DNA of 53,417 nucleotides from a virus (taxonomy: Duplodnaviria; Caudoviricetes): positions 1 to 53,417 of the IMG/VR virus record IMGVR_UViG_3300032278_000010; one strand, 5' to 3'. Positions 1 through 27,115 of this stretch are shown here, one piece after another. Both the position numbers and the translations under genes were made by a program. The notes under the pieces were generated by a model. That model did no database searches. It worked only from the letters and a program-made list of their open reading frames with translations, and was not told where the DNA came from. How positions within the stretch are numbered: position 1 is the first letter of the stretch; the number at the start of each line of letters is the position of its first letter.

Positions 1-2
1 TT

Positions 3-3000
3 TCAAAGCCTATTCCAGATGGTAATTTTAGTATAGAACCATTAGAACCGCATCAAATTAGATTTGCTCTACCTACGCATAAAGCTAAACAAGTAATTAG
101 AGAGGCTGCTAGTAGAGGAAGAGAATATACAGATGAGAATTTTGATACACTTGCAGGTTTATTAGGAAAAGTACCAAAAAGTTTACCTGTAATGAAAAAC
201 GGAAAGAAAACTGGCAAATGGTATCAAGTATTTGAAACAAATGAAAACGTAGCTGCTGAACAAGAAGAGTCTTTAGAAGATGTTGAAATAATCGTTATTG
301 ATGAAGCTTCAATGGTAAATGAAAGCCAAACAAAAGAATTAATTTCAATGGCAAAAAGACTAAATATACGTTTATTGTTTATGGGAGACAATGTTCAATT
401 ACCTCCTATAGAAAAGGGCGGTCAAGGGACTGTAGATGTAGCTCGAGTATTCGACACTGTAATGGAAATTAACCAAAAAGAACGAGTCCCTATAAATATT
501 AAAGCCCATTACGCCATACTTAATCAACGTATGAGACAGGATGAAGGTAATCCTATTTTAGGTATTACTGATATTCTTGCTAACGTTGCAGAGTGGATTC
601 ATGAACGACATGAAAATTATAAAAAACTCTGGAATAATTCAGATCTAAATTTCATATTACCAAATATCAATAATGAAAATGTTAAATATGAAAAAACTGA
701 AGTTACAAGAATTAAAGGAATGAAGAGTTTACAGGCATTCCCGACAGATTCAACAATTGAAAGTTTTGCTAACGAATATAAAGAAGCTAAAGATAACAAT
801 AATGAAAAGAATGTTAAATTCATTCAGTACAATAATGCAGATCATCCAAGAACTAAACAGCTTCGTGCAAAAATTCGTGAAAAACTTTTTGATGATTTCT
901 TTGCTGGGGATGTAGAAACAAAGCCTTTTCTTGTAGGTGAACGAGTAGTATTAGATGATGCTATAGCTATACTTGACGGAAGTACTATTAAATTTACTAA
1001 AGATTTACATAATGGAGATGAAGTAACTGTAGTAGCTGAGCTGAAAAAAGAAACTAATACTAGTTACAAGGACGGAATATTAGACAATTCTCCTACTTAC
1101 GAAGGGATTCCTGTAAATATTTTAAAAGTTAAAACAGATAAAGGTAAACCATACAGCATAGTATTAGAACATCCTACCTCTAAAAACGCTATAAAACAGG
1201 CGATGAAAAAGGGCAAGATCTATGAAGAAGGAAGTGGAGAAGAAAATAGAATAGCTCAAGAAATGTTTACAGAGGGTATAGGTGCAGCATATTTAATTAA
1301 TGCACATAAAGCACAAGGTAGTACTTACGATACTGTATATGTTGATTACGAAAATATTATGCGTAGTGCACAAGATAGTACAGACACAAAAACAGGAGAA
1401 ATTAAAAGATGGGGTCCTGATTTTCTAACTAGAGTAAAGGCATTATATGTTGCTACTTCCCGGCCAAGAAACAGACTTGTACTAGTTGGCTCAGGTGATC
1501 TGTCATTTGGAACAGGCGAACAACTACAAGAAAATATAAAAATAAAAGAAGATATCGAAGATCTTCAAGATCCTCCATTGCAAGATAACATTAATGACGC
1601 AGCAAAAGATGATCTTAAATCAATGGATGATTTACCAAAAGTTCCAACTAAAAATCCAGAGGATCTTGGGGGCATTGAAGAAGGTAACTTCAAGAGATTA
1701 TTTAACAAATTTAAAGGATTTTCGGCGCAATACTATGCTAATGCTCAGGAAATGCTTGGGCATACTGAAACCTTGGAGACAGTTTTAGATATTTTAGGTG
1801 AGGGAATTACTGAGATAGGCGGGATTAAATTAACCTTACAGGAAGTTAACGGAATTACTCAAGGTGAATATGACATAGCTAATAAAGCTATGATAGTAAA
1901 TCTGAGTAACGGTGCACCATTTAACGTTAATCAATCCCCGCAGGAAGTTTATGTTCATGAATTACTGCATGCTACTACAGCTCTCGCTATAAGAGAAAAT
2001 CCTTTAATTGCTGATCGTGTACATAGAGTTTATCTCCAAACTAAAAGAGCTTTGAGTGCAGATCCTAAGTTTAAAGGCGAGCCGTGGAGAGTATTCTTAA
2101 CAGGAATTGATACTCCTTCTAAGAATGATGAAGCTATGGCTAAGAAGCAATACGATTATGTATTTGCGGGTAAAGAGAAGAATAGACTACATGAATTTTT
2201 AGCTTATGCTGCAACTAACCGACAAATAATTGAGTATCTCAAGACTCAGCCTAAACCTGTAAGAGAAGGAATTCTAGATAAGATACTAGGTATTATTACC
2301 TCTATAATGAATTTCTTGAAATCTTCCTTCGGTAGCAGAACTTACGTAGCTAAGAGTGAAAATGCATTTGCAGAAATACTTGCTGCTACTGAGCATCTAG
2401 TAGCTACTCAAGCTAAACATGAAAGTATGTTAGACAGGTTAAGTGCGTACACTTACAATAATGCAGATGCTGCAGATAAATTTATTAAACGAACTGGGGA
2501 GAATGTACTTCTTAAGATTAAAGGCAAGGAGGGCGAAAACGTAGGTGTTCTTAGACAAGCTGCTACTATTGTCGGTGGCGGAATTTACGGCATTATGAAC
2601 ACTAATGACGCAACTATAGCTCTTAGACAGAAAATAGATCAAGGATTAAGTAAAACAATGAGAGGTATCGCCAGTGAAATTGGAGACGGTGCTCTCACCA
2701 AAGAAATGATTGAACAACTACTCTATGTAAAAGTTAATATATCCAAAGCTCGTCAGCAAGCAGAGACATTTACAATGAGTTGGTTTAATGGAAATAAGGA
2801 AGAAGAAATAGAGGGTATCTGGAAATCAGTTAAAGAAGGTGACAAGCATGGAATAGACGCCAAAACGAAAGTAGCCTTAACTAGGGTACTATTTCAAACT
2901 GATCTATCTGTTCTTTTAAATGAAGGTAATGAGTGGGCCATGACCCCTGCTGAGATTGTGGATCTTATAGGCCATACTGGTAAAGCCAGAAGAGATACAC

Positions 3001-5156
3001 TAAAAGCTAGAATAGCTGCGGAGCTTAAACTTTCTCATAGCTCAGATCCTCTTAGTTACGCAAAGGAATTAGGATATTGGATTGCTACAGGAAATACTAG
3101 ACTAGATGATTCTCATACTAATGTACGTACTATCGCAGCAGAGTATTTCACCAATCCTACTACTGCCGAAATAAATCTATTAGATATGTATTCCACGTTA
3201 TCTGCTTTAGATTATACAGATACTACCCATAATAAAGCCGTTTTAAAGCTAGCTAAAGCCGAATTTGAGGCTGATTTTGATCGTAATGGCATAAGTGATC
3301 TTCTCAAGAGTCATCATACATATAAACAGAATGTACACGCGGAGAACTTTGAAGAGAATGAAATGCAGCTAGTTAAAGGCTATATCGTAGAACGTGTAGA
3401 TAATTTTACTCATATTAGAATGGGTAGAGCTGACCAGAAAAAGGAAATGAAACAATTAGGTTATTCTGAAAGCTACCCAGTAAAGAAGATAGATGGTAGA
3501 CAAACCATTGATACAATGTATGTTACGCGTACTACACCAGAAGTTACGGATGTATCAGGTGTAATGTCTACAACTAACCAGAGAAACATGGGTACCACGT
3601 TAACTGAGATATTAGTTAGAGATCCTGCATTCTGGCATAAAAAAGGTCCTAATGAAGGCAAACCAGACTTCTATCTAATACAAGCTAGAGTCCAGAAGTT
3701 TATTAAAGAAAAGAGTAGAGACGCTAAAGCTAATAAAAACAAAGTATGGAATGACGAATTAACCATGCGTCCTCTTAGAGACCAAGCCGGGAATATTACT
3801 GATTATCGGGTAATGATGAATCATGCAGATGTAGAGCAGATTATTCGTCCAGATTTAGAAATTGACCATGTTTTTGCTCACATGAGGTCTTCAGCTGTGG
3901 ATCGTAAAGAAACCATTGAGAGTGATAAGAAGACTGTAGAGCTTCTAGTATATGAACAAATGGATATGATGAGAGCTAATCCAGACCTACATTGGATTGA
4001 TATTATGGATCCTGACTCTCCATACATAGATCGTTATAGAAAGCTTCCTAAAGCCGTCAGAGACCATATGAACGAGTATGCAGTAGGTGGGCAGTTCTTT
4101 ATTAGGGAAGATATTATTGATAAGGTATTTGGCTATAAAGCCTTTGATCTATCTGAATTAAAGATGCTTCAAGAGGAGGATACCAGTCCTAAACGTATTG
4201 CCAAAAGAGTTGCAGGAATAACTCATCATGCAATTAAACAAACTGTTGGGTACGGTAAAAACAGAGTAGTTATTGCTATGCCTAAAGTAGTCATAGGCAA
4301 TATGATGTCTAATATCTACCAGCTTATGATGAGGAAGATCCCATTAGATTATATCTTCCATAAAATCTATGAGGGTATACATGAATATAACAAATACCGT
4401 AAAGATACGGAAAGACGTACAACGCTTAAACACGAAATTGAATCACAAAACTTAGACACTGTTACAAGTCCAGAAGCTATTGAGGTGAGTCAATTAGATG
4501 ATCGTATTCAAGGTAATCTAATTCATAGAATGAGTAAGGCTGGATTAAATTCTCTTATTGTTGAGGATATTAATGATGCTCAGACGGATGGATGGTTGAA
4601 TAAATTACAGAAGACTATTCCATATTCTTTCCCGAAAGCGCAGAAGTTTATAGATAAGATGCCTTCTGAATTAGGAGATGTGGCAAGATTTGTATTTATG
4701 ACTAAAGGCAGTAAGCCTTATCAATATGCTCGTCATGTAGTGCAGCTAACGGATTTCTTAGCTCGGTACGTAATGATTGAGCATGGTACTAAAGTAAAAG
4801 GACGACCTTTTAATGATGTAATGCACGAATCTTTAGATGGATTTGTAGTATTTGATGAAGCTCTTGTCCCAGCATTAGAAGCATTAGAAGCTGTAGGAGC
4901 CACGTCATTCCTTTCTTACTATCTTCGTAATGCCAGAGCATCTAGGAAGTTAGCTGCATCTAGTCCTACAGGAGTAGCACTAGCAGCTGCAGTTCAGCAT
5001 ACTACTGGTATATCTGTATTAGGAAATGTAAATAGTTCCTGGTTAGCAGGCAGATTTACTCCAAATCTGCTTCAAACAGATGACCTATTTGACGAAGCTA
5101 ACAATGTTACCTTGTTTGATATAGTAAAAAATGAAGGCAGAGATTTATTTAATTGA
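3..5156 (+). CDS. N4-like virion RNA polymerase (gp50-like), C-terminal part, 5'-truncated; contains an SF1B helicase domain and an HEXXH zincin-like motif
   Basis: Frame is open from nt 3 (SKPIPDG...FALPTHKAKQVI...) into the 1654-aa ORF. Giant ORF convergent with the resolvase/SSB/primase block, as N4 gp50 is. C-terminal segments IDKVFGYK, KNRVVIAMPKVVIGNMMSN and QLTDFLARY...FVVFD resemble N4-like vRNAP C-termini as I recall them. The RNAP catalytic core is not in the window. Confidence 0.8.
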   Translation, partial: SKPIPDGNFSIEPLEPHQIRFALPTHKAKQVIREAASRGREYTDENFDTLAGLLGKVPKSLPVMKNGKKTGKWYQVFETNENVAAEQEESLEDVEIIVIDEASMVNESQTKELISMAKRLNIRLLFMGDNVQLPPIEKGGQGTVDVARVFDTVMEINQKERVPINIKAHYAILNQRMRQDEGNPILGITDILANVAEWIHERHENYKKLWNNSDLNFILPNINNENVKYEKTEVTRIKGMKSLQAFPTDSTIESFANEYKEAKDNNNEKNVKFIQYNNADHPRTKQLRAKIREKLFDDFFAGDVETKPFLVGERVVLDDAIAILDGSTIKFTKDLHNGDEVTVVAELKKETNTSYKDGILDNSPTYEGIPVNILKVKTDKGKPYSIVLEHPTSKNAIKQAMKKGKIYEEGSGEENRIAQEMFTEGIGAAYLINAHKAQGSTYDTVYVDYENIMRSAQDSTDTKTGEIKRWGPDFLTRVKALYVATSRPRNRLVLVGSGDLSFGTGEQLQENIKIKEDIEDLQDPPLQDNINDAAKDDLKSMDDLPKVPTKNPEDLGGIEEGNFKRLFNKFKGFSAQYYANAQEMLGHTETLETVLDILGEGITEIGGIKLTLQEVNGITQGEYDIANKAMIVNLSNGAPFNVNQSPQEVYVHELLHATTALAIRENPLIADRVHRVYLQTKRALSADPKFKGEPWRVFLTGIDTPSKNDEAMAKKQYDYVFAGKEKNRLHEFLAYAATNRQIIEYLKTQPKPVREGILDKILGIITSIMNFLKSSFGSRTYVAKSENAFAEILAATEHLVATQAKHESMLDRLSAYTYNNADAADKFIKRTGENVLLKIKGKEGENVGVLRQAATIVGGGIYGIMNTNDATIALRQKIDQGLSKTMRGIASEIGDGALTKEMIEQLLYVKVNISKARQQAETFTMSWFNGNKEEEIEGIWKSVKEGDKHGIDAKTKVALTRVLFQTDLSVLLNEGNEWAMTPAEIVDLIGHTGKARRDTLKARIAAELKLSHSSDPLSYAKELGYWIATGNTRLDDSHTNVRTIAAEYFTNPTTAEINLLDMYSTLSALDYTDTTHNKAVLKLAKAEFEADFDRNGISDLLKSHHTYKQNVHAENFEENEMQLVKGYIVERVDNFTHIRMGRADQKKEMKQLGYSESYPVKKIDGRQTIDTMYVTRTTPEVTDVSGVMSTTNQRNMGTTLTEILVRDPAFWHKKGPNEGKPDFYLIQARVQKFIKEKSRDAKANKNKVWNDELTMRPLRDQAGNITDYRVMMNHADVEQIIRPDLEIDHVFAHMRSSAVDRKETIESDKKTVELLVYEQMDMMRANPDLHWIDIMDPDSPYIDRYRKLPKAVRDHMNEYAVGGQFFIREDIIDKVFGYKAFDLSELKMLQEEDTSPKRIAKRVAGITHHAIKQTVGYGKNRVVIAMPKVVIGNMMSNIYQLMMRKIPLDYIFHKIYEGIHEYNKYRKDTERRTTLKHEIESQNLDTVTSPEAIEVSQLDDRIQGNLIHRMSKAGLNSLIVEDINDAQTDGWLNKLQKTIPYSFPKAQKFIDKMPSELGDVARFVFMTKGSKPYQYARHVVQLTDFLARYVMIEHGTKVKGRPFNDVMHESLDGFVVFDEALVPALEALEAVGATSFLSYYLRNARASRKLAASSPTGVALAAAVQHTTGISVLGNVNSSWLAGRFTPNLLQTDDLFDEANNVTLFDIVKNEGRDLFN

Positions 5157-5456
5157 TGTCTTTGCAGCATAAAATAGTAAATAGAATATTACCATAACTA
5201 GTACAGTTGGGATAATTACTACAGAACCTGCTAAAATAATTAAGGCTACTGTTATTACTAAAGCAGCTATTAAGAAAGCCTTAAGTTTTTTTGTAAATGG
5301 TTCTTTTGGACTACTATCTGAACTAGGTAAAGATAATCCTCGTAGTATTTCGTCAGCTTCTTCAGCTTCTCTTTTTTCCTGTTCTTTTTCAGCTTTAAGT
5401 TCTTCAACTATTTTTAAAGTCTTAAAATAGGTTTCTCTACTAAATTGTTCAGTCAT
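5145..5456 (-). CDS. membrane protein
   Basis: 103 aa with a long hydrophobic C-terminal half; last gene of the minus-strand block. Confidence 0.7.
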   Translation of the reverse strand: MTEQFSRETYFKTLKIVEELKAEKEQEKREAEEADEILRGLSLPSSDSSPKEPFTKKLKAFLIAALVITVALIILAGSVVIIPTVLVMVIFYLLFYAAKTSIK

Positions 5457-5961
5457 TGGATTTAGTGAATAAAGAAGGGTTAATCATAGGTAAATCGCCA
5501 GTTTTGGGAATTTGGGCCTCGTCAGATGCCGCTGAGTCCGTTATCTCTTCCTCTTTGACCTCTACCCCTTTGGTATTTTGGGCTTCTTCAGCAAGTTCTT
5601 TATTAGCTGCAGCCATACCTTCAGCTGCTATCTTATCTATCCGTGCTTTTTTAATAGCTTCCTCTTTAGCCTCATTTTCAGCCGAGTCGTCCATATGAAG
5701 TTGAGCTTTGATTTCTCCTTTTTCCTCAGGAGTAAGTCTACGTTCAAGTATTTTCTCCTGCTTGTGTAATGCCATTTCTTCCGCGTTACGGCGTGTTTTA
5801 CCTTCGCGTGGGAATTCGTATTCATACTTAGATTCCTCAATTTGAAATACTGCAGGTTTAATGTCTTCTTTGTATTCCTTTACAGCATTGCCAATATTAA
5901 GTTGTTCTCTAATTAGATTACGTATTTCTTCACGTACAATAGCTTCTATATCTATATTCAT
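5449..5961 (-). CDS. hypothetical acidic/coiled-coil protein
   Basis: 170 aa, overlaps both neighbours, GGAGG SD upstream. Confidence 0.7.
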   Translation of the reverse strand: MNIDIEAIVREEIRNLIREQLNIGNAVKEYKEDIKPAVFQIEESKYEYEFPREGKTRRNAEEMALHKQEKILERRLTPEEKGEIKAQLHMDDSAENEAKEEAIKKARIDKIAAEGMAAANKELAEEAQNTKGVEVKEEEITDSAASDEAQIPKTGDLPMINPSLFTKSND

Positions 5962-6431
5962 TGTTCCTCCATATGTTTTAATCCATAATGGGCAATCATT
6001 AAAGCGTCAGATCTTCCATCTAATAAGCCTCCTCGTTTACCGTGTAATTCAGCCGTTGGGTATAAGCCTTGAGCTATTTTAGCCACTTGTTTCTTTATAG
6101 CTTTACCTTTAGCAGTAACACCTATGTATTTTTGCCATACTTTAGGAGTAACTGTTTTAGGTGGAATTCCTTTAAGTAATTCAGTAATAGCTAATATAGT
6201 GCCTAGATTTCTACCAAATCCAAAATTAGATTTAGCTGACATACCATACATAGAATGTATGTCTTCTACCCAGATTTCACCACTTCTAAATCTTAATTGG
6301 CTGTGCAACCAATTATAAATATTATTAATGGTAGTTTTCTTTAAATCTAACAGAGCAACGCTGTCTGGATTCTCTGAATCCAGAACAGCGATTGCTCCAT
6401 TAGCCCCCGGATCAATGCCTGCGATAAACAT
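5958..6431 (-). CDS. RuvC-like Holliday junction resolvase
   Basis: AGIDPG, VED, FGFG, vtPkvWQK and GRSDALMIA motifs. Confidence 0.9.
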   Translation of the reverse strand: MFIAGIDPGANGAIAVLDSENPDSVALLDLKKTTINNIYNWLHSQLRFRSGEIWVEDIHSMYGMSAKSNFGFGRNLGTILAITELLKGIPPKTVTPKVWQKYIGVTAKGKAIKKQVAKIAQGLYPTAELHGKRGGLLDGRSDALMIAHYGLKHMEEQ

Positions 6432-7183
6432 TAAATAGGAGGTTCTTTATCAAACAAAGAGCCTTGAGCAGGAGGAGAAGTATCACCCATTATGCCTGCA
6501 GCAGAGTCTTGTGTTTTAGCACCTTTAGTGCTTTTATCAATAACTAGGCCTGTATTCTTAGTAGCCCATCTATCCATTGCAGCAGCATCTTTTTTCTTTG
6601 TAATCTCCTCAGCAGTTTTACCAGTATCTATATTACCGAAGAATTGACATTGATTAACAGGTTTAGTGTCACCAGAGGCAACCCAATCTCCCTTGGAGTT
6701 CTGAGTTCGTTTATCCTCAATTACTTGACGAACGGCAACTTTAACTTTCTGATTAATCAAATTAGTAATTACTGGGTATTCAGAAGGCATTTCTTTTCCT
6801 TCTTTAAAATCCCAGACCTTAATTACTTTTTTCTCTACTTTGGTCATATTAGTATCGAAATCTTCTCCGGTTACAGATAAACATAAAGATTTAGCAGTTT
6901 GATACCCGGGTAAAGGTTGCTTCTTACCATCTTTACTTACATAGTAAGTTTTGTTACCTTTTTCGTCACCAGATTTAACACACCACTTGTCTCTGATACG
7001 CCCAAAATTTCCACTAGCTTTTTCAAGTTCTACATTTAAAAAATAAGCACCACCAGCGGTTTGAGTTAAATAGGCTAGTTTAATATTGGTATCATATACT
7101 CCGGATTCCCATAAAAAATTTCCTCCGCCAGCTCCTTCAATAGAAGGTTCTACTACATCATCTGGAAGTTTCCATTCACTCAT
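6431..7183 (-). CDS. single-stranded DNA-binding protein (N4 gp45-like)
   Basis: WESGVY, GDEKGNKTYY, LPGY and SLF near the C-terminus; position after the AAA ATPase as in N4. Confidence 0.8.
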   Translation of the reverse strand: MSEWKLPDDVVEPSIEGAGGGNFLWESGVYDTNIKLAYLTQTAGGAYFLNVELEKASGNFGRIRDKWCVKSGDEKGNKTYYVSKDGKKQPLPGYQTAKSLCLSVTGEDFDTNMTKVEKKVIKVWDFKEGKEMPSEYPVITNLINQKVKVAVRQVIEDKRTQNSKGDWVASGDTKPVNQCQFFGNIDTGKTAEEITKKKDAAAMDRWATKNTGLVIDKSTKGAKTQDSAAGIMGDTSPPAQGSLFDKEPPI

Positions 7184-7475: not shown

Positions 7476-8207
7476 TTATTTATAATATTCATGAAGTCGA
7501 TTAATTACATGTCGTAAATCATTATCAATATATGTTTCTGTTGCTTTCCACATATCCATAGGAGCTCGCATACGTTCATGTATAGTGTCTTTAGTTATCC
7601 TAGTCTGAAATACATATTTAAATCCTAAATCTTTTTCTTCAGGTGTAACATTATATAATTTAGATTTGGCATTCTTATCGTTTAGTTTCTCTAAAGACAT
7701 TTTCTTAGTAGAGATAACAGTACTAAAGAAACTTTCTATGCCTACATTCTTTAAGGCACCTTTAACTTTAACTATAGTTTCGTTAATCATTTCAGATTCG
7801 TTTAAAACGTCTGCAGTATGAGCTAGAAAAACTACATTTTTAGTAGACTTAGCTACTATCTGTGACATTAATCGTCTCATATATTGACCGTATTCTTGCC
7901 AAGCTGCTCTAGAATCAGTAGCAGTTAGTACTCTAGTACTTTCAAACATATCCATTAAATATGTAAGACTATCTATTACTATGGTATGTACATCTTTGTG
8001 TTCAGGTTTTTCTGCTTCGGCAAATGCTTGATATACTTGGTTAGTATCTGTAACTACTAATTCTTTAAATTTTGTTTTAAAAGGTAATTTCTTACCATTT
8101 TCACAATTTAAATACATAACTCCTTCAGGTTTATCAAGAGCTCTTAAACTAGCACTTTTACCTGAAGCAGATTTACCTGATACTAATACTAGATGGTCGT
8201 TAATCAT
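7476..8207 (-). CDS. AAA_24/Sak4-like ATPase (N4 gp44-like)
   Basis: Walker A SGKSASGKS, YLNCE, IVIDSLT, FLAH. Confidence 0.85.
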   Translation of the reverse strand: MINDHLVLVSGKSASGKSASLRALDKPEGVMYLNCENGKKLPFKTKFKELVVTDTNQVYQAFAEAEKPEHKDVHTIVIDSLTYLMDMFESTRVLTATDSRAAWQEYGQYMRRLMSQIVAKSTKNVVFLAHTADVLNESEMINETIVKVKGALKNVGIESFFSTVISTKKMSLEKLNDKNAKSKLYNVTPEEKDLGFKYVFQTRITKDTIHERMRAPMDMWKATETYIDNDLRHVINRLHEYYK

Positions 8208-10369
8208 GTGATGTTTTCTCCTCGTTTAGTTAGTTCTTTACTAATAGACTTAACAGTACTATTTCTAAATTGATCCTCAGGTAATGGAGTTTCCAGTTTA
8301 CTGTTAAAATTTTCTAATTTTTCTACAATTTCTCCTAAACCTAAGCCAGCATCTATTAATACCATCCCATATCTGTAGAGATGATTAGCTCGATTACCTG
8401 TTGTAGTATGGTTTATAAACCAACGCTCAATATTACCAACGCCAGTAGCTGTAAGCTTAGCTTTGATTTCATCGGATTTCTTAGTTTCTGGTATAAATAG
8501 TGTCGCGTCTAATACATTCCCCTGGTTATATTCGTATTTACCAGGATGTGAAGCCCACTTTCTAGAGATATCTTTAGCTGCTTCGTCTACAGGAAATGGT
8601 AACCAATCAAGTATATTACGCATGAATCTAGAATAATCATGAGTACCTAGTTTAAGTCTATGTGATAAAGGCAATATTAATCTAAATCGATTTACCTCTT
8701 CAGTATGTCTTTTAGTGGTAGACATTAAAAAAGTATAGTCTTCCAGCAATACTTTAACTGTACTCATCTTAACGTCACCATCACAATCTAATATAAGTAG
8801 ATCGAATCCAGGAATAATATTTTCACTTTTACGATGGCCATTTATAAATGAATGGGCAGTATAGTGATAACCATCAGCTGTAGTAAGTTTATAAAATTGG
8901 TCGAAAGGCGGGTGATCAATTTGATAATCGTAAGCTATGTCTTTACTAATAGCTACGGTTAAACTATTTAAATCTGTTTCAATTAAAGTTTCACCTTTAA
9001 AAAATTCTATATTGTCTATCTCTCGTTTTTTAATAATTATATTATTACGATAGCCAAAAGACATAGCTAAGCTCATTAATTCTGCTCGTTGAACTTCACT
9101 TCCTTTATAAAATTGTAATTCTTCCATTAGTTCATGTTGAGTTACTTCAGTATCCATGTCAGCTAAATAATGAGCTAAACGTTCATAAGAGCCCTGTTTT
9201 CTCATAAGCTTATGAAAAGCTTCTCCTGAATCTTCGACTACACTAATTGCGTAATCTAGATGATCTGTAGTAATTTCTGTTTCATTGTCTACAAAAGCGT
9301 AGGCTCCTGCTAATTTTAATGCTTTATAGTGACGATGATTTAATTCATTTTTTTGAATAGTCATATGATCTTTCATATCGTCTGCTGCTTCTTCAGATCT
9401 CATTTGATATTCAAGTAAATGAATATGGTTTTCTTTTGACATTTGAAGAATTGAATTAACTGGTCTTTTTGCAAAGCTTGCGAATGTTTCTTGGATATCT
9501 TCCATTTCATTAGCTATATCTGGATCAGTCATCTGTTGATAACGTTCTTCTGCTGATGCATATTTAGTTCTATGAGTCTCTGTCGTATATCCAAATAACA
9601 ATCTACGAGCATATCCTATGTCCAACCATTCTTTAAATTCTTCTTCTATCTTTCCACCATCTAATAACTTAGTTGGTGTACCAAACATCATTAAATTAGT
9701 GGGAGTACTACCAGGTAGTTCTTCTGATCGAATACTTTCTTGAGTATTCTTAATAAGTTTCTGCTTAATTAAGCCTACATCGTATAATTCTAGAAATGCA
9801 TTAAGTACGTCTGTATTCGCGGATAGGTTAGAACCTACTTCATCTAGTTCTAGATTCATAGAACCTGCTGCAGCTAATAGAAGTTTCTCTCGCATTTGTT
9901 TAACTGCGGGAGCTGTACCACTGTCGAAGCTAAAAGCTAATTCTCCTAATTTATCAAAAGTTTTTTGAAGTTCTTCTAATTGATAATCACATTCTTCTGG
10001 GAGAGTTCTTTGAGTTTGGCCAATATTAACTCGCCAAGAGGCTTTCTCTTGAGCTAGAAACTGTAAATTTTTATCTGCTTCTTTAGGAAATACATTATTA
10101 AGAAAATCTTTTTTAAAGAAAGCTACGAATTCTCTTTCTAGAATATTAGTAGAGTGTCCTTTACCTGTACCTGATACCATCAAATTGAGTACATAAGTAT
10201 TAACTGGAATTATATCTCTATCATTTGTCTGAATTCTGCATCGCATCATTGAAGCGATTTTAGATAGATAATAACAGGTTAAAATTCTAAAGAAATGTCG
10301 ATTGTCGCTGTTAACTTTCTTAGTTAAAATATCGACTATTCTTTCTGAAAATGGATGGTATTTTTTCAT
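8204..10369 (-). CDS. DNA primase (N4 gp43-like)
   Basis: P-loop SGTGKGHS, FDSGT, LELDEVG, primase-like LILDCDG, RFRLILP and GNRAN; synteny. Confidence 0.85.
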   Translation of the reverse strand: MKKYHPFSERIVDILTKKVNSDNRHFFRILTCYYLSKIASMMRCRIQTNDRDIIPVNTYVLNLMVSGTGKGHSTNILEREFVAFFKKDFLNNVFPKEADKNLQFLAQEKASWRVNIGQTQRTLPEECDYQLEELQKTFDKLGELAFSFDSGTAPAVKQMREKLLLAAAGSMNLELDEVGSNLSANTDVLNAFLELYDVGLIKQKLIKNTQESIRSEELPGSTPTNLMMFGTPTKLLDGGKIEEEFKEWLDIGYARRLLFGYTTETHRTKYASAEERYQQMTDPDIANEMEDIQETFASFAKRPVNSILQMSKENHIHLLEYQMRSEEAADDMKDHMTIQKNELNHRHYKALKLAGAYAFVDNETEITTDHLDYAISVVEDSGEAFHKLMRKQGSYERLAHYLADMDTEVTQHELMEELQFYKGSEVQRAELMSLAMSFGYRNNIIIKKREIDNIEFFKGETLIETDLNSLTVAISKDIAYDYQIDHPPFDQFYKLTTADGYHYTAHSFINGHRKSENIIPGFDLLILDCDGDVKMSTVKVLLEDYTFLMSTTKRHTEEVNRFRLILPLSHRLKLGTHDYSRFMRNILDWLPFPVDEAAKDISRKWASHPGKYEYNQGNVLDATLFIPETKKSDEIKAKLTATGVGNIERWFINHTTTGNRANHLYRYGMVLIDAGLGLGEIVEKLENFNSKLETPLPEDQFRNSTVKSISKELTKRGENIT

Positions 10370-13460: not shown

Positions 13461-13710
13461 ATATTAACCTTTCTGTTTTAAGGATATTTAAATGTTGTTT
13501 ATAATTAGTACCTTTAGGCAGATCTGTTAATAACATTACGCAGTCTGCTTCAGCTGCTTTTTTCCAATCTTTTATTGTACCGCTAGAATCCACCCAATCT
13601 CTTCTGAATAAACATTCGTCAAATGGTATATCGTACCATCTAGGAAGCCATTGATCTTTTATATTAGGATTAATGATTCCACCTATACATAAATACTTAT
13701 ATTTTTTCAT
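13450..13710 (-). CDS. hypothetical protein
   Basis: 86 aa, overlaps both neighbours. Confidence 0.6.
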   Translation of the reverse strand: MKKYKYLCIGGIINPNIKDQWLPRWYDIPFDECLFRRDWVDSSGTIKDWKKAAEADCVMLLTDLPKGTNYKQHLNILKTERLIYGI

Positions 13711-15011
13711 GAGTTTATATACACGTTTTCGCTGGCTCTAGTTAAAGCAACATAGAATAGCCGTGCTTTAGTAATTTTATCTCTACATTTATCTATATTT
13801 GTTTTGTCAATAAATACAGCTGGGAATGTTCCACCTTGAGCTTTATGAGTCGTACCTGCAAAAGGTGGGCGTAAATCTGCTAAAGCATTTTTAATATCAT
13901 AATAGTGTACCCAATGTGATTTATCTTTTTCTTTGATAGCTTGTTTCTTATATTCAGCTAAAACTTTATTAGCGGCTGTAGGCGTGATAGGTGAGAATAC
14001 TTTTTTAACATCAGTTTTAAGATACTCACAAAAGTCTCCTCGTACTGTTACTAAATAGCCAGGAATACCCATATATTCTGCATCTTCATATTGCATAACG
14101 CGGATTGTTTCATTATTAGTTAATATTATTTTTTCGGATTCCATCACTACGCTATTAGCAATTAGTATTTCCCCGGGATAAAAAGGTTGCACTACATCTT
14201 CTAAAAAATATGAAGCTTTACGAATCATAGCATTATAATTAATTGCGGATTCGTTAGTATATGTACATAGAGGCACATCCACATAAGTTCCTACAGTATA
14301 GTTCATATATTTACTAACAAATTTCGATACAAAATCTGTATGTGGTAATACATGAATACCGTTTCCATTATTATTAACTAAGCTTTCCAGTGTAGGTTCG
14401 ACACTAATATTTCCTTTTATATATTCACGAAATTCGGTAGCTTTAGCTAGAATTGGATTATCTTTAAGTTGTCTGTGAATTGTAGTAAGGGTAAAGGTAG
14501 GTAATGAACCATCGAAGATACAACATTTATCTTTTGGAGGAGGAAGTTGATAGTTATCTCCTACAAATAGTAATTTTAAATTCTTTTTCTTAACTATATC
14601 TACGATAGCTTTTAAAAATGAATTACCAATCATAGAAGCTTCGTCAATAATAACTAAAGATCCTGGTTTAATTTTACAACTGCCAGAAGATGTAATTAAT
14701 TCTTTACCTGAAGCACTAACAGTAGGACGTAGTTTAAATAATTTATGCGCAGTGGTAGTTTGGTCCTTTCCAATTAATACTATAGTATCGGCTAGTACAC
14801 GAGCTGCTCTATGAGTGCTTGCACACAAAGCTACTGGGATCATATCGTTAATATCTTTAGCTCGTTCTATAATTTCTCCTATTACGGTAGTCTTACCAGT
14901 ACCCGCCGATCCGGTAAGAACAGCTATTTTATGCGTATAAGATATTAGGTGAAGTTGTAACGTGTCACATATACCACTTATCGCATCAAGCTGATCTTGT
15001 GAAAAGTTCAT
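13707..15011 (-). CDS. Dda/RecD-like SF1B DNA helicase (N4 gp37-like)
   Basis: GSAGTGKT, ASTHRAA, IIDEASM, GDNYQLPP, THKAQG, YVALTRA. Confidence 0.95.
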   Translation of the reverse strand: MNFSQDQLDAISGICDTLQLHLISYTHKIAVLTGSAGTGKTTVIGEIIERAKDINDMIPVALCASTHRAARVLADTIVLIGKDQTTTAHKLFKLRPTVSASGKELITSSGSCKIKPGSLVIIDEASMIGNSFLKAIVDIVKKKNLKLLFVGDNYQLPPPKDKCCIFDGSLPTFTLTTIHRQLKDNPILAKATEFREYIKGNISVEPTLESLVNNNGNGIHVLPHTDFVSKFVSKYMNYTVGTYVDVPLCTYTNESAINYNAMIRKASYFLEDVVQPFYPGEILIANSVVMESEKIILTNNETIRVMQYEDAEYMGIPGYLVTVRGDFCEYLKTDVKKVFSPITPTAANKVLAEYKKQAIKEKDKSHWVHYYDIKNALADLRPPFAGTTHKAQGGTFPAVFIDKTNIDKCRDKITKARLFYVALTRASENVYINS

Positions 15012-17436
15012 AAATCTCCTTTAGTGTTGCATTATTATTTAATGGAACTAATGTATCCCAAGATTTACCTATTTCTAGCGTAGCTTTCATAGGAACATCT
15101 ACAGATTTAATCACTTTATGATCGTTCCATTCCATTTCTTCGATAAGTATATCGTTTAAAAATTTAATATAATGTGGGTCATTTCTAACTATGAAATAAC
15201 CAGCATCGTGGATCATATTACATGGAAGAATATCCTGGCTATGGCCAGCTTCTTCTATACGCCGGTTAGTTGCATTCATAGCTCTATTAAGTAGCATCCC
15301 CCAGGATTGAGTTATTGCATTATTAGCACTACGAGCTTCTTTATCTGCTTCGTGTGGTGTTCTAGAATTGCCTAGAATACACTGCGATATTATTGGAGTC
15401 CTTAGTTTTAAACCAAATGCGCACTCTACGTATCCATGTTCTTCCATAAATTGTGTATTCTTTTTATTGAATTCTTTAGATACTTTATATAATTCATGAA
15501 ATGCTTTCTCAATTTTAGTAGCTTGATTCATCGGAAATCCGGTTCTCTTATGAAGAGTATAAGCTGTGCCCATATATTGTAGAGCAAAGGTAGGTCCTTT
15601 AGATCTACGTCTTAGTTCTGGGTATTTATTTTGAATAGAATTGATACTATCTACATCTGTTGGATCTATATCAGGCATTTGATCTGCGAAATATGTTTGA
15701 GCTCTTAGTGAATGCCCATCATAGCCGTCGGTGTATACCTTAATTCGATTGGGGTCCTTACTTAGAATAGCTCCTATACGTTCTTCTAGAGCTGAGAAAT
15801 CTGCACCTGCAAACAACCAACCATCTGGGGCTACTATACAACTTTTAATAAGTTTTCCCATAGAGCCATGGGCTGGAAGGTTTGTTAGATTAGGAGAATT
15901 ACTGGATAGTCTTCCTGATTGAGTTCCTCCTAATTTTAGATTGCCATGAAGGACATCAGTTTCTTTCATAAAAGCTTTAATAAATGTCCCATCAATTTTG
16001 TCTACTTCAGATAATTCCTGAATAAATTCTAATAAATCTAGAATATCCTGGTCTGTAGTATGATTTGCTAAATCTTTAAGTGTCTGTCCTCCTGTAGCAG
16101 GTGCTCCGGATTTAGTTTTATCTAATATTGGTAATTTTAAATGACCAAATAATAAAAGAGCTAATTGTTGATGACTACTTGGATTAAACTGAACGTCATA
16201 AAATTCTTTTATAGTTTTAACTAATTTCTTTAATTTAGAATTAGCTGTTGTACACGCTACTCTTTGTAAAGTTTTAGTGAATTTTTTAACATGTTTGTTT
16301 TCTTGAATTTGTTCATGTAGTACTTTATTTTTAGCTTCCAAAATATTATGAACATCCATTACTCGTTCTGAGCTCATTGGTAATCCAATCAGCATCATCT
16401 TGGTTAAAGTATATAAACTAGGTTTAAATATTTCTAGATAAGCTTCAGAAGATAATTGTTCTATATAAGTTTCGTAGGCATAGAAAGTAGCTAATGCGTC
16501 AATTAAATTATATTGTAGTATTTCTTTTTTTGTATGTTTGGTGATATCGGTGAGTTCGATAGCGTAATTGCCTACGTACTCTAATGCTATCTCTTTTAAT
16601 CCTAAGGATATTGGAGTAGTAGCATTTTTAGCTAAATAAGCTAGTATCATGGTGTCGTCAAAAGTTTTGAAATTATGCAATCCCCGCATCATCCCTTCAT
16701 AATCTTTATCATGTTCCATCCATAAACTATGAACTAACATTTTTACGTCAAATAAACCATTATGGAATATGAGTTGGCCTCTGTATTTTTCAAAGAAATC
16801 CTTAAGCCAATAGATACCAGTAATTGAAATATCAATTGCTGCACCATCATGCTTAGTCCATGCAAATGCAATAGATATTAAATTGTCATGTAAATCCAAT
16901 CCTGTAGTTTCAATATCTACTGTGAGTACTTGGTGTTGGTACAGATGATCCAAAATATCTCTGTCAGATCCATGAGCAAAACCATATTCAGCAGAATTTA
17001 TGAGTTGAGTATTACCATTAGAAGTGATTGCTTTAATACCTGCATCAATTAATCGAATATTTTCTGGTTGTTTAAATAAAGATTTATAATTTGGAATATA
17101 TACACAGCTGTATTTTTCATAACCGGGATAAGCGCCATTAAGCACTGCACCGTAATAGTCAGAAACTTTAGCTTTTTTAGTAATAACCTTAAAGTAATTA
17201 CTATCAGCTATAATCATGTTAGTAACTGTTTCAGGAATCTTTATGATAAGCTTATCTAAGTAAGCTTTAGCAGTTTTGGCTACTATCTTTGTATCTGTAT
17301 TATATATAAGCGGTAAAGGCAGGACGTCTCCTTTACTTATACCTGCTGCTTCTAATTTGTCTAAATATTGTGATGAGATTTCTGCATAGTTATCTAATGC
17401 ATTTTCTTTACACAGTAGGACAGTAGTGATCGACAT
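14986..17436 (-). CDS. family A DNA polymerase (N4 gp39-like)
   Basis: Exonuclease motifs DIETTG, HNGLFD and YNLID; GTQSGRLSS; motif A DFSALE; motif B RRRSKGPTFALQY; motif C IHDA. Confidence 0.95.
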   Translation of the reverse strand: MSITTVLLCKENALDNYAEISSQYLDKLEAAGISKGDVLPLPLIYNTDTKIVAKTAKAYLDKLIIKIPETVTNMIIADSNYFKVITKKAKVSDYYGAVLNGAYPGYEKYSCVYIPNYKSLFKQPENIRLIDAGIKAITSNGNTQLINSAEYGFAHGSDRDILDHLYQHQVLTVDIETTGLDLHDNLISIAFAWTKHDGAAIDISITGIYWLKDFFEKYRGQLIFHNGLFDVKMLVHSLWMEHDKDYEGMMRGLHNFKTFDDTMILAYLAKNATTPISLGLKEIALEYVGNYAIELTDITKHTKKEILQYNLIDALATFYAYETYIEQLSSEAYLEIFKPSLYTLTKMMLIGLPMSSERVMDVHNILEAKNKVLHEQIQENKHVKKFTKTLQRVACTTANSKLKKLVKTIKEFYDVQFNPSSHQQLALLLFGHLKLPILDKTKSGAPATGGQTLKDLANHTTDQDILDLLEFIQELSEVDKIDGTFIKAFMKETDVLHGNLKLGGTQSGRLSSNSPNLTNLPAHGSMGKLIKSCIVAPDGWLFAGADFSALEERIGAILSKDPNRIKVYTDGYDGHSLRAQTYFADQMPDIDPTDVDSINSIQNKYPELRRRSKGPTFALQYMGTAYTLHKRTGFPMNQATKIEKAFHELYKVSKEFNKKNTQFMEEHGYVECAFGLKLRTPIISQCILGNSRTPHEADKEARSANNAITQSWGMLLNRAMNATNRRIEEAGHSQDILPCNMIHDAGYFIVRNDPHYIKFLNDILIEEMEWNDHKVIKSVDVPMKATLEIGKSWDTLVPLNNNATLKEIYELFTRSA

Positions 17437-24047: not shown

Positions 24048-24065
24048 TCTAATCGGCGTAGCCGA
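24048..24065 (-). promoter_or_regulatory. vRNAP hairpin promoter for the RNAP II gene
   Basis: Template-strand TCGGC-GTA-GCCGA, 5-bp stem with GNA triloop. Confidence 0.75.
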
Positions 24066-24206
24066 CCTAAAGGAATGTAAGTTTATTAATTTAGTAATTA
24101 GCTAGTTAATGCTACTATAAGATGGCCTCCTATATAAAAGACCGCAAAACAAAGAGTTACTATAGCAAAATAATTTAAATATCTGTCTATTTCCATTATA
24201 TTTCTC

Positions 24207-24470
24207 CTATAATTCACGGTAACCTGCTTTACCGAGTTTTACCTCAGCTTCAGTACGCAGTTCTTCAGTGATATCTAAGGTTTGTTCTAAATCTTTAATT
24301 TTAAGTCTTAATTTACAGATTTCAGCTTTTTTATCATGTAAAGCATTTTCTTGGTCTTTAATTATTCCTAATAAACCGGAGTCGGATTCATTATTAATCG
24401 GTAAGATGTCTTTAACTAGCGGTACCATTCTCACAACTCTTTCTATGTTACGTAGTGATGGTAATTTCAT
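24207..24470 (-). CDS. hypothetical coiled-coil protein
   Basis: Start likely MKLPSL after GGAGG SD. Confidence 0.6.
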   Translation of the reverse strand: MKLPSLRNIERVVRMVPLVKDILPINNESDSGLLGIIKDQENALHDKKAEICKLRLKIKDLEQTLDITEELRTEAEVKLGKAGYREL

Positions 24471-24490
24471 TGCTCCTCCTTTGTTAGTAA

Positions 24491-24685
24491 TCAACAAATA
24501 GTCTCCATTTCGGGTATTGCTCTTATTTCTTCTGGATCCTCCCTGATACATGGCGTTAATTCGTGTTCTTGTATATACTTTTCTGCTTCATGTCGTGAAT
24601 CAAACTTAATAGTGCGTCCTTCTTCATCTCCCATTACTGCTGGAACATAATTAATTGGGATATTTTGAACTAGAACCCATTTCAT
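24491..24685 (-). CDS. hypothetical early protein
   Basis: 64 aa, GGAGG SD. Confidence 0.6.
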   Translation of the reverse strand: MKWVLVQNIPINYVPAVMGDEEGRTIKFDSRHEAEKYIQEHELTPCIREDPEEIRAIPEMETIC

Positions 24686-24699
24686 TAGAACCTCCAGGA

Positions 24700-24921
24700 T
24701 TAAGAATATGTTGGTTTATTTTTAAGAAAATCAGAAATAGGAACGCATCCGAAGGCTGAATAACTAGCACCTACTTCATTAAGTATTTTTATAGCTCTGT
24801 CTCTTTCTTCTATGCATGTTTGTTGTGCATGATACTCTCCAATATTATGGATGTATTCTACACTATAAGGTTGACTAAATACTATCATCAGAAGGATATA
24901 AGCGCTCATGTTAGTTTCCAT
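24700..24921 (-). CDS. hypothetical early protein
   Basis: 73 aa, hydrophobic N-terminus, two Cys. Confidence 0.55.
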   Translation of the reverse strand: METNMSAYILLMIVFSQPYSVEYIHNIGEYHAQQTCIEERDRAIKILNEVGASYSAFGCVPISDFLKNKPTYS

Positions 24922-25204
24922 TTCTTGGGGGTTTGTCTAAACTGTCTTTAAATTCTGCGTCTTCTTGAGCTAATCTATCCGCATTTTTTTCTAACCATTC
25001 ATGATAAGCATCAGCTACTTTATGCTTATCTGCCTGAACTTCAATACAATGATTGTATGAAGCTCTTTTTGATATATGTAACATACTTTCAATCAAAGAT
25101 TTTCTAGTATAAGTATCTGTATAATTTGTTGCTTTGTATTTACATTTAAAATACTCTTGTAATAGTAATGCTAATAGCTTATCAAATTCGTTACTAAAGG
25201 TCAT
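24911..25204 (-). CDS. hypothetical early protein
   Basis: 97 aa, GGAGG SD. Confidence 0.6.
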   Translation of the reverse strand: MTFSNEFDKLLALLLQEYFKCKYKATNYTDTYTRKSLIESMLHISKRASYNHCIEVQADKHKVADAYHEWLEKNADRLAQEDAEFKDSLDKPPRNGN

Positions 25205-25386
25205 CGAATTTTCCTCCTTTTAATCATGAACTGAGAAATATTTCTTCTTTGGGTCTCGTTTCTTACCAATCAAAGCTTTTTTAATAGCAATATCACTATT
25301 AGTAGCTTTGACTCTATCTATCTTAATTAGTTCACTTTTTGTAACTTCATAAATAGTATATCGCATTGGCACTATCCTCGAAAGAC

Positions 25387-25419
25387 GCGCCTTGCTCACC
25401 TAACGGTGAGCGCAGGCGC
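25387..25419 (-). terminator. stem-loop after HNH gene
   Basis: GCGCCT..GCTCACC-TAAC-GGTGAGC..AGGCGC hairpin; weak U-tract. Confidence 0.45.
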
Positions 25420-25441
25420 TGATTAATATCAGTAATAATAG

Positions 25442-26095
25442 CTATGCTGCCTTTCTTTTCTTTTTAGGTTTATAAAGTTTACCGCCATTCAACTTCTTTG
25501 CTTGGTTACAGTTTGCACATAATAGTTGGTATCTTTTCTTACGATCTGGATCTCTTAGATAATGCCTTAGTTCTATACTACCTAAACTTCCGCCAGATTT
25601 TATAACAGGATTTTCTATATGACCGTCATTGTAAACGTGGTCAATTTGAAAATACATAGGATCATTTTCTCCACAACCTTTGCATTTACCGCCTAACAGT
25701 CTATGCAATTCTTTTTTATTTACTTCTCTTTGGTCTTTGTACTTCTTTGCCATACGGTCAAAGTGTTTTCTCCTATAGTTTTTAGCCATAACTGCTGCTC
25801 GGACTGGGCATTTCTTACAGTACTTTTTAGTCCAAGAACGCATGCTTACTAGCTCATTACATCCTTTTGAAGAACAAACAATATCTGATTTGCTCTTGTT
25901 TGCTTTATTTAAACATTTCATATTACAAAAGTGTGTCTTTCTCTTACCTTTTACTTCCCATGGACATCTTATAAACTGATTACCACACATATTGCATTGT
26001 ATTAACCATTTCACTCGTTTTCTGGTATTTAATACACGAACGAATCCTGTGTAGTCGCCTTTCTTTACAACGTATGGTATAGATTTAATAATCAT
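25442..26095 (-). CDS. zinc-finger HNH endonuclease
   Basis: Several CxxC pairs; CKGCG...QIDHVYNDG...YQLLCANCN. Confidence 0.8.
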   Translation of the reverse strand: MIIKSIPYVVKKGDYTGFVRVLNTRKRVKWLIQCNMCGNQFIRCPWEVKGKRKTHFCNMKCLNKANKSKSDIVCSSKGCNELVSMRSWTKKYCKKCPVRAAVMAKNYRRKHFDRMAKKYKDQREVNKKELHRLLGGKCKGCGENDPMYFQIDHVYNDGHIENPVIKSGGSLGSIELRHYLRDPDRKKRYQLLCANCNQAKKLNGGKLYKPKKKRKAA

Positions 26096-26127
26096 TAGAT
26101 CTCCTTTAAAGTTACTATCTTATTCCT

Positions 26128-26162
26128 AAAAAAGGAAACTGGGAGCAGTACCCCCAGTTTCC
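26128..26162 (-). terminator. intrinsic terminator
   Basis: GGAAACTGGG/CCCAGTTTCC 10-bp stem followed by a T-tract on the minus strand. Confidence 0.75.
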
Positions 26163-26168
26163 AAATGA

Positions 26169-26543
26169 TTAGAACTCGGCAATAAGTTCATCACCATTAA
26201 TAGCTCTCTTAACATTACCAGTACGAGCGGCTTCCAATACTTCGTCTACGTCTGAAGAATCCAAACTAAGAGAAGCATCACCTGCAGTTACAAACCCGCA
26301 GAATTTAACTTCGGTATCAGTCTTATACATTACCTTAAGACTTTTACCCTCTGTTTCTAACAACGACATATTGCCATTGCTAAACAGGGACTTAACTTTC
26401 TCAGGCGTTAAGCCTTTAGAAGAGCTAAGATACTGAGCAGGTTCAAAATAACGCTCGGACTCGCCCAAAGTAAACCTAAGCTTAGGAGCTCTAGATTTGT
26501 CTTCGGTTTTAACTTTGTTATAAGTATTAGTTTTAACACTCAT
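26169..26543 (-). CDS. early protein with its own promoter and terminator (possible gp2-like RNAP II cofactor, by position only)
   Basis: MSVKTN start after GGAGG SD; monocistronic unit. Confidence 0.55.
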   Translation of the reverse strand: MSVKTNTYNKVKTEDKSRAPKLRFTLGESERYFEPAQYLSSSKGLTPEKVKSLFSNGNMSLLETEGKSLKVMYKTDTEVKFCGFVTAGDASLSLDSSDVDEVLEAARTGNVKRAINGDELIAEF

Positions 26544-26608
26544 AATACTAATTCCTCCAAATGGAATAGAATTTGGATATGCTGTGCCCTTGTTTGGGTT
26601 CACAACAA

Positions 26609-26624
26609 CCTACTAGGCGTAGCC
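26609..26624 (-). promoter_or_regulatory. vRNAP hairpin promoter
   Basis: CCTACTAGGCGTAGCC. Confidence 0.75.
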
Positions 26625-26721
26625 AGAACTTAATTAGATGTGAGATTAAACAGAAAGCAGGGTTTCATACTAAGGAGGGTTTTAGGCAGTAACGGCTCTC
26701 TCAAGCCGTTCTGCCCTGCAT

Positions 26722-27084: not shown

Positions 27085-27115
27085 GATCTATCCTCCATGT
27101 TTAGGGTTTTAATTA

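Follow-up and report, generated by a model that had tools for sequence, protein, structure and literature searches.

The virion RNA polymerase (vRNAP) of an uncultured marine N4-like phage is predicted to contain a complete Dda-type helicase of superfamily 1B (SF1B) as part of the same polypeptide, placed between the polymerase domain (Pol) and a C-terminal domain (CTD) that bears an HExxH motif. The phage is represented by the window, the whole stretch of DNA analysed here, a linear IMG/VR virus contig of 53,417 bp (IMGVR_UViG_3300032278_000010) with a completeness estimate of 74%. The start of the contig interrupts the vRNAP gene, about 10.1 kb of which lies upstream of the window, and the remaining C-terminal part forms the open reading frame (ORF) at the left end (Table 1). 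The Pol core and the Walker A motif of the helicase are encoded upstream of the window, and their sequences are taken from near-identical proteins found in other assemblies. The domain order of the vRNAP is an N-terminal region, a T7-like Pol, an S/T-rich linker, the SF1B helicase, an acidic linker and a CTD that opens with the HExxH motif.

The interrupted ORF matched two PHROGs profiles in succession, phrog_325 ('Dda-like helicase') at amino acids (aa) 18-503 (4.7e-34) and phrog_2206 ('virion RNA polymerase') at aa 464-1688, covering profile positions 2201-3382 of 3406 (6.1e-109), and Pfam placed AAA_30 (1.6e-11) and AAA_19 (2.1e-9), both P-loop helicase families, at aa 18-141 and the first part of UvrD_C_2 at aa 429-449. 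A search limited to proteins longer than 3005 aa recovered P0002 (3480 aa, from another assembly), which is 100% identical to the part encoded in the window and itself matches phrog_2206 at 6.2e-165. The 90%-identity cluster of P0002 has 31 members, three of them 5090 aa long and derived from contigs of 23-51 kb. Because residues 1611-5090 of one of these, P0183, equal P0002 at 3478 of 3480 positions (99.9%), the complete vRNAP is predicted to be 5090 aa long and P0002 to begin at an internal methionine, so that P0002 numbering plus 1610 gives full-length numbering. In the available text of PMC10654107, reference vRNAPs measure 2842-3820 aa, so that the present one exceeds them by a wide margin.

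Comparison with sequences of the PDB by phmmer aligned P0002 to full-length gp50 of coliphage N4 (9pnq, 11gp) in four colinear blocks, and the CTD matched N4 vRNAP chains at E values of 7.7e-14 and 1.6e-9. The catalytic motif A signature ExDGxxxG of the T7-like Pol domain (PMC10654107, in the part available) is present as EIDGITNG in P0002, aligned to EADGVTNG of N4, and the motif B region RKTVKYPFMIYMYGGG of P0002 is aligned to RGIAKNPLTITIYGSG of N4. Between blocks 2 and 3 there are 1178 residues in P0002 versus 745 in N4, whose vRNAP is described in the available text of PMC13492108 as an N-terminal domain (1-919), Pol (1008-2104) and CTD (2123-3500) joined by flexible linkers. Given this difference and these domain limits, the helicase is predicted to take up the Pol-CTD junction. 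The protein thus has Pol motifs A and B, a gp50-like CTD and an N4-like genome context, by which it is identified as N4-type, and we infer that this predicted vRNAP is packaged in the virion, injected, and responsible for early transcription from hairpin promoters. The full-length chain also has an extra N-terminal extension of about 1600 aa (P0183 1-1610) that is without N4 counterpart and holds charged, coiled-coil-like stretches. The N-terminus of P0183 is 59.7% identical to the SLT-bearing N-terminal region of P0003, the one relative in which an SLT domain was found directly (N-terminus, 4.7e-18), and other vRNAP relatives are annotated with a 2OG-Fe(II) oxygenase or a YbiA/NADAR-type name.

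The original prediction, made from the letters of the window, had described helicase motifs Ia, II, III, IV, V and VI in a frame that runs on into a vRNAP. Each motif is found at its place, helicase and vRNAP profiles share the one ORF, and the full-length copies P0002 and P0183 confirm the union. The two elements that it could not see are intact upstream, the Walker A as GRGGTGKT 15 aa before the first residue of the window, and the RNAP core as Pol motifs aligned to N4 gp50; its statement that no helicase domain is known in gp50 agrees with the 745 residues that N4 has in the corresponding stretch. An alignment of 22 vRNAP-embedded helicase segments (P0026 being N-terminally truncated) and the stand-alone helicase of the window revealed that all 21 non-truncated embedded segments retain the stretches which we take to be motifs I, Ia, II, III, IV, V and VI. 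The near-invariant signature (GRGGTGKT, DEaSM, FMGDNVQLPP, RQ, HKAQGSTY and YVATSRP) is set in domains with an overall identity to the query of merely 25-56% among embedded homologues. As judged from these sequences, the embedded SF1B helicase is most probably under purifying selection and, with all catalytic motifs present, looks functional.

The predicted structure is in line with this assignment. An AlphaFold2 model of P0002 1680-2290, calculated on a 30-sequence alignment, had disordered ends, a mean predicted local distance difference test score (pLDDT) of 77.3 and a predicted TM-score of 0.83. Foldseek against the PDB, a comparison at the level of the complete domain, matched the SF1B fold (two RecA-like domains with accessory domains) as a whole and ranked T4 Dda first (3upu_A, E 9e-22, target TM-score 0.71), followed by DSH9, RecD of RecBCD (6sjb_D, 2.5e-17), RecD2 (3gpl_A, 4.1e-17) and Pif1 (5fhd_A, 1.7e-14). 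Identity to Dda over the structural alignment was 17-18%, and the embedded helicase has extra loops, one of which is strain-variable.

Assembly of the junction was examined with contigs of four other metagenome runs placed on window positions 1-6000. All 30 bins of this interval were covered in each of the four runs with no indels listed, and contigs extend past base 1 of the window. Single contigs bridge the junction of helicase and CTD (1307-1771, 1409-1763, 1307-2053 and 1307-1763) with 0 differing letters. Because contigs of four runs bridge this junction and independent protein clusters share the architecture, misassembly at this point is ruled out. The sole structural variation in window 1-6000 is a spot within the helicase (positions 413-592), where loose contig ends occur at 413, 526 and 592 in the four runs and one contig joins 413 to 526, omitting 112 nt; the stretch partly coincides with a low-confidence part of the model (pLDDT below 50 at model residues 224-228). 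At least 93% of sampled words of window 1-3000 were present in 20 marine plankton metagenome runs, five of which may be the source sample and for which two studies only are named, and the phage appears common in such metagenomes.

Table 1. Features of the vRNAP, of the rest of the window and of related loci. Positions are nucleotides of the window unless a protein or locus is named; helicase motif names are presumed assignments; HEL, helicase.
Feature	Position	Strand	Description or basis
vRNAP C-terminal part	3..5156	+	1717 aa + stop codon; frame open at 5' end, 1717 codons without stop
SF1B (Dda/RecD2-like) helicase domain	3..1496	+	lacks first ~85 aa; Pfam, PHROGs, motifs, AlphaFold2 model
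Helicase motif Ia	66-86	+	ALPTHKA
Helicase motif II	288-314	+	IIVIDEASM
Helicase motif III	378-407	+	FMGDNVQLPP
Helicase motif IV	525-539	+	QRMRQ
Helicase motif V	1299-1328	+	NAHKAQGSTY
Helicase motif VI	1443-1466	+	LYVATSRP
Strain-variable stretch in helicase	413..592	+	motif III to just past motif IV; contigs of four runs
Acidic linker, probably disordered	1494..1691	+	GDLSFGTGE...GIEEGNF; pLDDT <50 at model residues 586-611, the linker start
vRNAP CTD	1692..5153	+	homologous to N4 gp50 CTD; phrog_2206 and alignment to N4
HELLH near CTD start	1956..1970 (aa 652-656)	+	candidate zincin-type metallopeptidase site; conserved HExxH
Pol motif A EIDGITNG	P0002 1055		outside window; aligned to N4 gp50
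Pol motif B RKTVKYPF	P0002 1189		outside window
Pol motif LHDAF	P0002 1550		outside window
S/T/Q-rich linker	P0002 1660-1690		between Pol and helicase
Walker A GRGGTGKT	P0002 1749		first residue of window is P0002 1764
Helicase end	P0002 ~2260		followed by acidic linker, P0002 2261-2326
HELLH	P0002 2415		
phmmer block 1	P0002 875-1068		N4 1379-1569
phmmer block 2	P0002 1178-1227		N4 1648-1701
phmmer block 3	P0002 2406-2853		N4 2447-2887
phmmer block 4	P0002 3125-3431		N4 3141-3455
SSB	6431-7183		N4-like replication block
Primase	8204-10369		N4-like replication block
Stand-alone Dda-like SF1B helicase	13707..15011	-	replication module; phrog_325 6e-80, own motifs intact
DNA polymerase (PolA)	14986-17436		N4-like replication block
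RNAP, 583 aa	22226-23977	-	phrog_2051 and phrog_2166 (N4-like RNA polymerase)
Motif CTAMTMGGCGTAGC	24049-30012	+	early region; 7 copies, all + strand, 0.03 expected
Candidate early promoter element			CTAMTMGGCGTAGCC
TerL	32808-34430		
Exonuclease	46871-48049		second replication module
gp2.5-like SSB	48006-48695		second replication module
PolA	48785-50839		second replication module
Helicase, 3' open	52641-53417		second replication module
vRNAP locus L002			fused Pol-HEL-CTD, 4709 aa
vRNAP locus L014			helicase before Pol, 3902 aa
vRNAP locus L012			Pol-HEL-CTD, broken inside CTD
vRNAP locus L010	L010:1989-15774		split operon: Pol-bearing ORF 2350 aa, helicase P0129 970 aa, CTD 1272 aa
vRNAP locus L053			helicase ORF 1704 aa directly upstream of 2749-aa Pol+CTD ORF
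Giant ORF, 4189 aa	L044:53-12619		SF1B helicase + ART-PolyVal; Pfam
Giant ORF, 3028 aa	L005:2885-11968		SF1B helicase, then NADAR; Pfam
Giant ORF	L056		DUF7831; Pfam
Giant ORF	L037		sub-threshold SprT-like match; Pfam
Giant ORF	L003		nothing beyond helicase; Pfam

The window encodes a second SF1B helicase as a separate gene of the replication module, which the original prediction had reported, calling the embedded domain an extra copy. The stand-alone gene is confirmed, and the term holds insofar as the phage has a second SF1B gene, but the two are paralogues and not recent duplicates. They share 23% identity (E 1.4e-14), and in a tree of 95 helicase domains (IQ-TREE quick search, LG+G4, with SH-aLRT, an approximate likelihood ratio test, as the only support measure) the embedded domain falls in a clade of 16 rows (SH-aLRT 100) made of 13 Pol-helicase-CTD proteins, one protein with the helicase before Pol and two fragments, while the stand-alone helicase belongs to a separate major clade of 20 rows (SH-aLRT 99). 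The tree excluded P0001, the cluster members P0174-P0187 and all rows that had under 380 aa of the domain or no Walker A region. The low identity and the separate clade rule out a recent duplication of the phage's own helicase.

How widespread the arrangement is and in what ARRANGEMENTS was surveyed by BLASTP of four parts of P0002 against 172 fetched proteins. The Pol-helicase-CTD order was found in P0003-P0006 (4901-4994 aa), with identities of 67-81% in Pol, 81-91% in the CTD and 48-56% in the helicase, and in P0008-P0014 (3296-4790 aa), with 36-41% in the helicase and about 22-26% in Pol and CTD; the Pol match of P0010 is a 119-aa segment at 54%. The helicase lies upstream of Pol in P0007, P0020 and P0022 (and in locus L014), and upstream of a CTD with no Pol match in P0112, P0120, P0083 and P0071. 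Many vRNAPs in this set have no helicase. A pattern search of viral contigs with a single helicase protein gave 19 hits, none confirmed. From IMG/VR, an alignment-based scan retained 80 loci out of 286 confirmed relatives. Five of the 80 were vRNAP-linked according to our own hidden Markov models, built from 36 sequences for Pol and 57 for the CTD, all relatives of this protein; frequencies such as these are drawn from lists seeded with it.

One of the five loci is a split operon in which the helicase start overlaps the preceding stop codon as TAATG and the CTD starts 9 nt after the stop codon before it. Because this locus (L010) places P0129 between the Pol and CTD genes, P0129, a member of the helicase family of about 1000 aa that fills much of the tree, is best read as the split-off middle piece of a vRNAP. 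The record that holds it is 41 kb long and rated 23% complete, and this phage may be large. The helicase module recurs in N4-like vRNAPs, fused behind or ahead of Pol, or encoded as a separate protein of about 1000 aa or larger next to the Pol and CTD genes. By the same sequence comparisons, numerous uncultured N4-like phages have an intact SF1B helicase coupled to a vRNAP module, either covalently or genetically. Window 1-6000 had no Megablast match among 50,697 phage records, and the 423 cultured-phage records that matched the vRNAP CTD did so at 23% identity at best. Among the cultured matches listed, the helicase-in-vRNAP arrangement was not seen in cultured N4-like phages.

The available text of the literature on N4 vRNAP structure, N4-like metagenomics and polyvalent proteins, searched outside its supplements, yielded no helicase domain in a vRNAP. 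The word 'helicase' has no occurrence in the portions searched of PMC13434306 and PMC13492108 (2026 structures of N4 vRNAP, the latter with a section headed 'transcription-coupled DNA injection') and of PMC10654107 (a 2023 survey of N4-like metagenomic phages). It occurs 22 times in the corresponding portion of PMC5512222 (Iyer et al. 2017), none tied to an N4-like RNAP, and the supplementary architecture lists of that paper may hold such cases. The helicases of polyvalent proteins treated there are SWI2/SNF2 enzymes (superfamily 2, with DarB-type methylases) and UvrD-like enzymes in actinomycete plasmids; the text available makes no mention of an SF1B helicase of the Dda/RecD type in one protein with an N4-like RNAP. 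The same source describes N4-like RNAPs as polyvalent proteins in which metallopeptidase, lysozyme/transglycosylase, RNase or ART domains are attached to the polymerase, as in the vRNAP with ART of Roseovarius Plymouth podovirus 1. The present protein follows this concept in having an RNAP with accessory enzymatic domains and a conserved HExxH, the candidate metallopeptidase site, in one giant chain. Multidomain polyvalent vRNAPs are already known, and the Dda-type helicase extends that catalogue.

The relationship to systems of known structure is one of partial likeness. Like N4 gp50 (3500 aa; 9pnq, 9pnr, 11gp), the protein is a giant single chain with an N-terminal region, Pol and CTD in this order; unlike gp50, it has an SF1B helicase of about 570 aa and two linkers where N4 has only a flexible linker. 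Like T4 Dda (3upu), its best structural match, the helicase has a complete set of SF1 motifs, and it matches phrog_325; unlike Dda, which is a free, replication-associated protein of 439 aa, it is a domain inside a predicted virion protein. RecD in RecBCD provides a functional analogy only, as an SF1B 5'->3' motor held within one machine together with an enzyme that acts on the other strand, so that the two advance in one direction. RecBCD, however, is a repair nuclease/helicase assembled from separate subunits and not a polymerase, and homology is claimed for the helicase core alone.

The start of the CTD presents a further difference from N4. Of 57 aligned CTDs, 54 contain the HExxH motif and three have no residues in those columns, and H87, E88 and H91 of the region are invariant, while the N4 stretch aligned to it has no HExxH. 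Pfam found no peptidase family in the ORF. A model of the CTD start (window aa 566-966) had a pLDDT of 69.6, and Foldseek returned nothing for it at E <= 1e-3. The folds proposed by VIA-align (LF-type zincin, PPEP and the Certhrax N-domain, Z 5.2-6.5) are below the trust level of the tool and are suggestive only of a zincin-like metallopeptidase fold.

The vRNAP of N4 cannot use linear duplex DNA and needs host supercoiling and host single-stranded DNA-binding protein (SSB) to present its hairpin promoters, and SF1B helicases have 5'->3' polarity. We propose, at slightly less than an even chance, that the helicase enters the virion and then the cell along with the polymerase and opens the template on the incoming genome. 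It would act as a 5'->3' motor on the single-stranded non-template strand, travelling in the same direction as Pol, which reads the template 3'->5'. Such a motor would open linear duplex DNA, make short promoter elements accessible and hold the template in single-stranded form, and the vRNAP would then be less dependent than that of N4 on supercoiling driven by host gyrase and on host SSB. A Rosetta-stone pattern, with fusion in some cases and conserved adjacency in others, favours a functional link between helicase and vRNAP. The flexible linkers that flank the helicase are consistent with the proposal, as are its higher conservation than that of Pol and CTD in P0008-P0014 and the early-region motif CTAMTMGGCGTAGC, which occurs in seven copies and holds a GGC-GTA-GCC mini-hairpin with a potential stem of only 3 bp, G:C. 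The original prediction had likewise suggested that the injected enzyme may unwind its own template or pull in the genome, as part of a self-contained, helicase-assisted early transcription system. Extended further, a lineage of marine N4-like phages would inject a self-sufficient transcription machine, in which a mobile SF1B module unwinds the entering genome, ends the dependence on gyrase and SSB and allows promoters with 3-bp stems; the module would have been swapped between distantly related vRNAPs and would sometimes be a separate subunit encoded between the Pol and CTD genes. We put this extended form clearly below an even chance. A vRNAP with a built-in conserved helicase would provide an experimental handle on template access by injected polymerases and on the first entry of DNA, and the fused and split forms (the Pol, helicase and CTD operon) are ready-made constructs for biochemistry.

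A number of observations weigh against template opening by an injected helicase. In the unbiased part of an exhaustive HMMER search, 21 representatives had a CTD and a length of at least 3000 aa; 18 of them carried no helicase and 3 did. The helicase query matched 64 cultured-phage records, and among the 40 matches listed none was under a vRNAP, all being stand-alone helicase, nuclease or unannotated features. Since most vRNAPs lack it, the helicase is no general requirement of vRNAP function. It does not keep a fixed place relative to Pol, and the phage encodes both an SSB and a replicative helicase of its own. The very short promoter stems noted in the original prediction hold as far as the 3-bp stem and its seven copies go, but the hairpin (-1.6 kcal/mol) is no better than shuffles in six of the seven; the one copy that beats them has a 5-bp stem (-4.7 kcal/mol, z -2.5). 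The motif could, moreover, serve the second RNAP of the phage instead, and the putative HExxH peptidase might cleave the polyprotein and so free the helicase from Pol. Finally, in 14 of the 80 IMG/VR loci the helicase is part of an ORF of 1457-5362 aa without N4-type Pol or CTD.

These last loci are the main support for another reading, to which we attach a limited probability, clearly below even: that the helicase is a generic module of polyvalent proteins, an interchangeable 'early-phase effector' that acts on incoming DNA apart from transcription and for which the vRNAP is a vehicle. It might strip host proteins or defence complexes, remove R-loops, or prepare DNA for repair or replication. 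The helicase is near the C-terminal end in most of the 14 giant ORFs, and Pfam, in a scan that covered five of them, placed ART-PolyVal, NADAR or DUF7831 beside it in three; the first two (L044 and L005) are predicted to be helicase-bearing polyvalent proteins of other phages. The giants without RNAP agree with a general injected module for DNA processing or counter-defence no less than with an RNAP helper. The unfixed position of the helicase within vRNAPs points the same way, as do the SLT, oxygenase and YbiA/NADAR-type annotations of vRNAP relatives and the fact that N4-like RNAPs are already classed as polyvalent (PMC5512222, text available). The vRNAP itself unites several unrelated enzymatic domains (Pol, helicase and HExxH CTD) in one giant chain of 5090 aa, which is the mark of such proteins. 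Set against this, the closest clade of the embedded domain consists of 14 proteins with vRNAP parts and two fragments of unknown context, and the helicase gene, where split, stays beside the Pol and CTD genes. Furthermore, some of the giants may hide a divergent polymerase, because the profiles used for Pol and CTD derive from relatives of this protein and five of the 14 ORFs continue beyond the fetched flank.

Two further roles appear improbable. Genome entry in N4 is coupled to transcription by the vRNAP, and an injected helicase might pull in the rest of the genome, adding to or replacing that drive. If injected, it would be a nucleic-acid motor at the right time and place; SF1B enzymes, however, track single-stranded DNA whereas the genome enters in double-stranded form, neither a membrane anchor nor a portal-binding element was identified beside the helicase, and most vRNAPs do without a helicase. 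We give equally little credence to an RNA-release or termination factor, which would move 5'->3' on the nascent RNA or the template, strip the RNA:DNA hybrid, and so replace the template recycling that host SSB performs for N4 vRNAP. RNA:DNA hybrids are substrates of some SF1B helicases, the fold matches include Pif1 chains, and a flexible S/T-rich linker tethers the helicase right after Pol, but in fold and sequence the domain comes closest to Dda, RecD and RecD2, which are DNA helicases, and in several vRNAPs the helicase is about 1000 aa upstream of Pol. That the fusion is an artefact of misassembly or of a lost stop codon, or that the domain is an inactive relic, is extremely improbable: the contig is a fragment and its right end (44.8-53.4 kb), with deviating composition and a second replication module, makes some chimerism possible, but the bridged junction, the sharing of the architecture by the 31-member cluster and 11 further clusters at 36-55% helicase identity, and the conservation of seven of seven helicase motifs all speak against it.

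The genome context of the vRNAP is that of an N4-like phage. The vRNAP is the last gene of its strand block and is convergent with a replication module of N4-like synteny that also holds an exonuclease and an ATPase. The second RNAP is encoded by a 583-aa ORF, in which both N4 RNAPII subunits may be fused into one protein. Copies of CTAMTMGGCGTAGC lie upstream of small minus-strand ORFs and of this RNAP gene, and the motif is a candidate early or middle promoter. Its 9-nt hairpin core was absent or single in the records of the five vRNAP-linked relatives and scattered in 8 of 81 loci, a comparison in which the early regions of relatives are mostly not included. In the whole 54.8-kb record of one relative (G002), a search for recurrent GC-rich hairpin cores gave one core of four copies only, with no clustering.

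The right end of the window (44800-53417) differs in GC content, which is 0.42-0.47 versus 0.33-0.40 elsewhere. Its replication module was either acquired or stems from a chimeric join in the contig, and the best cultured matches of its PolA, at 35-36% identity, are to siphovirus-type phages.

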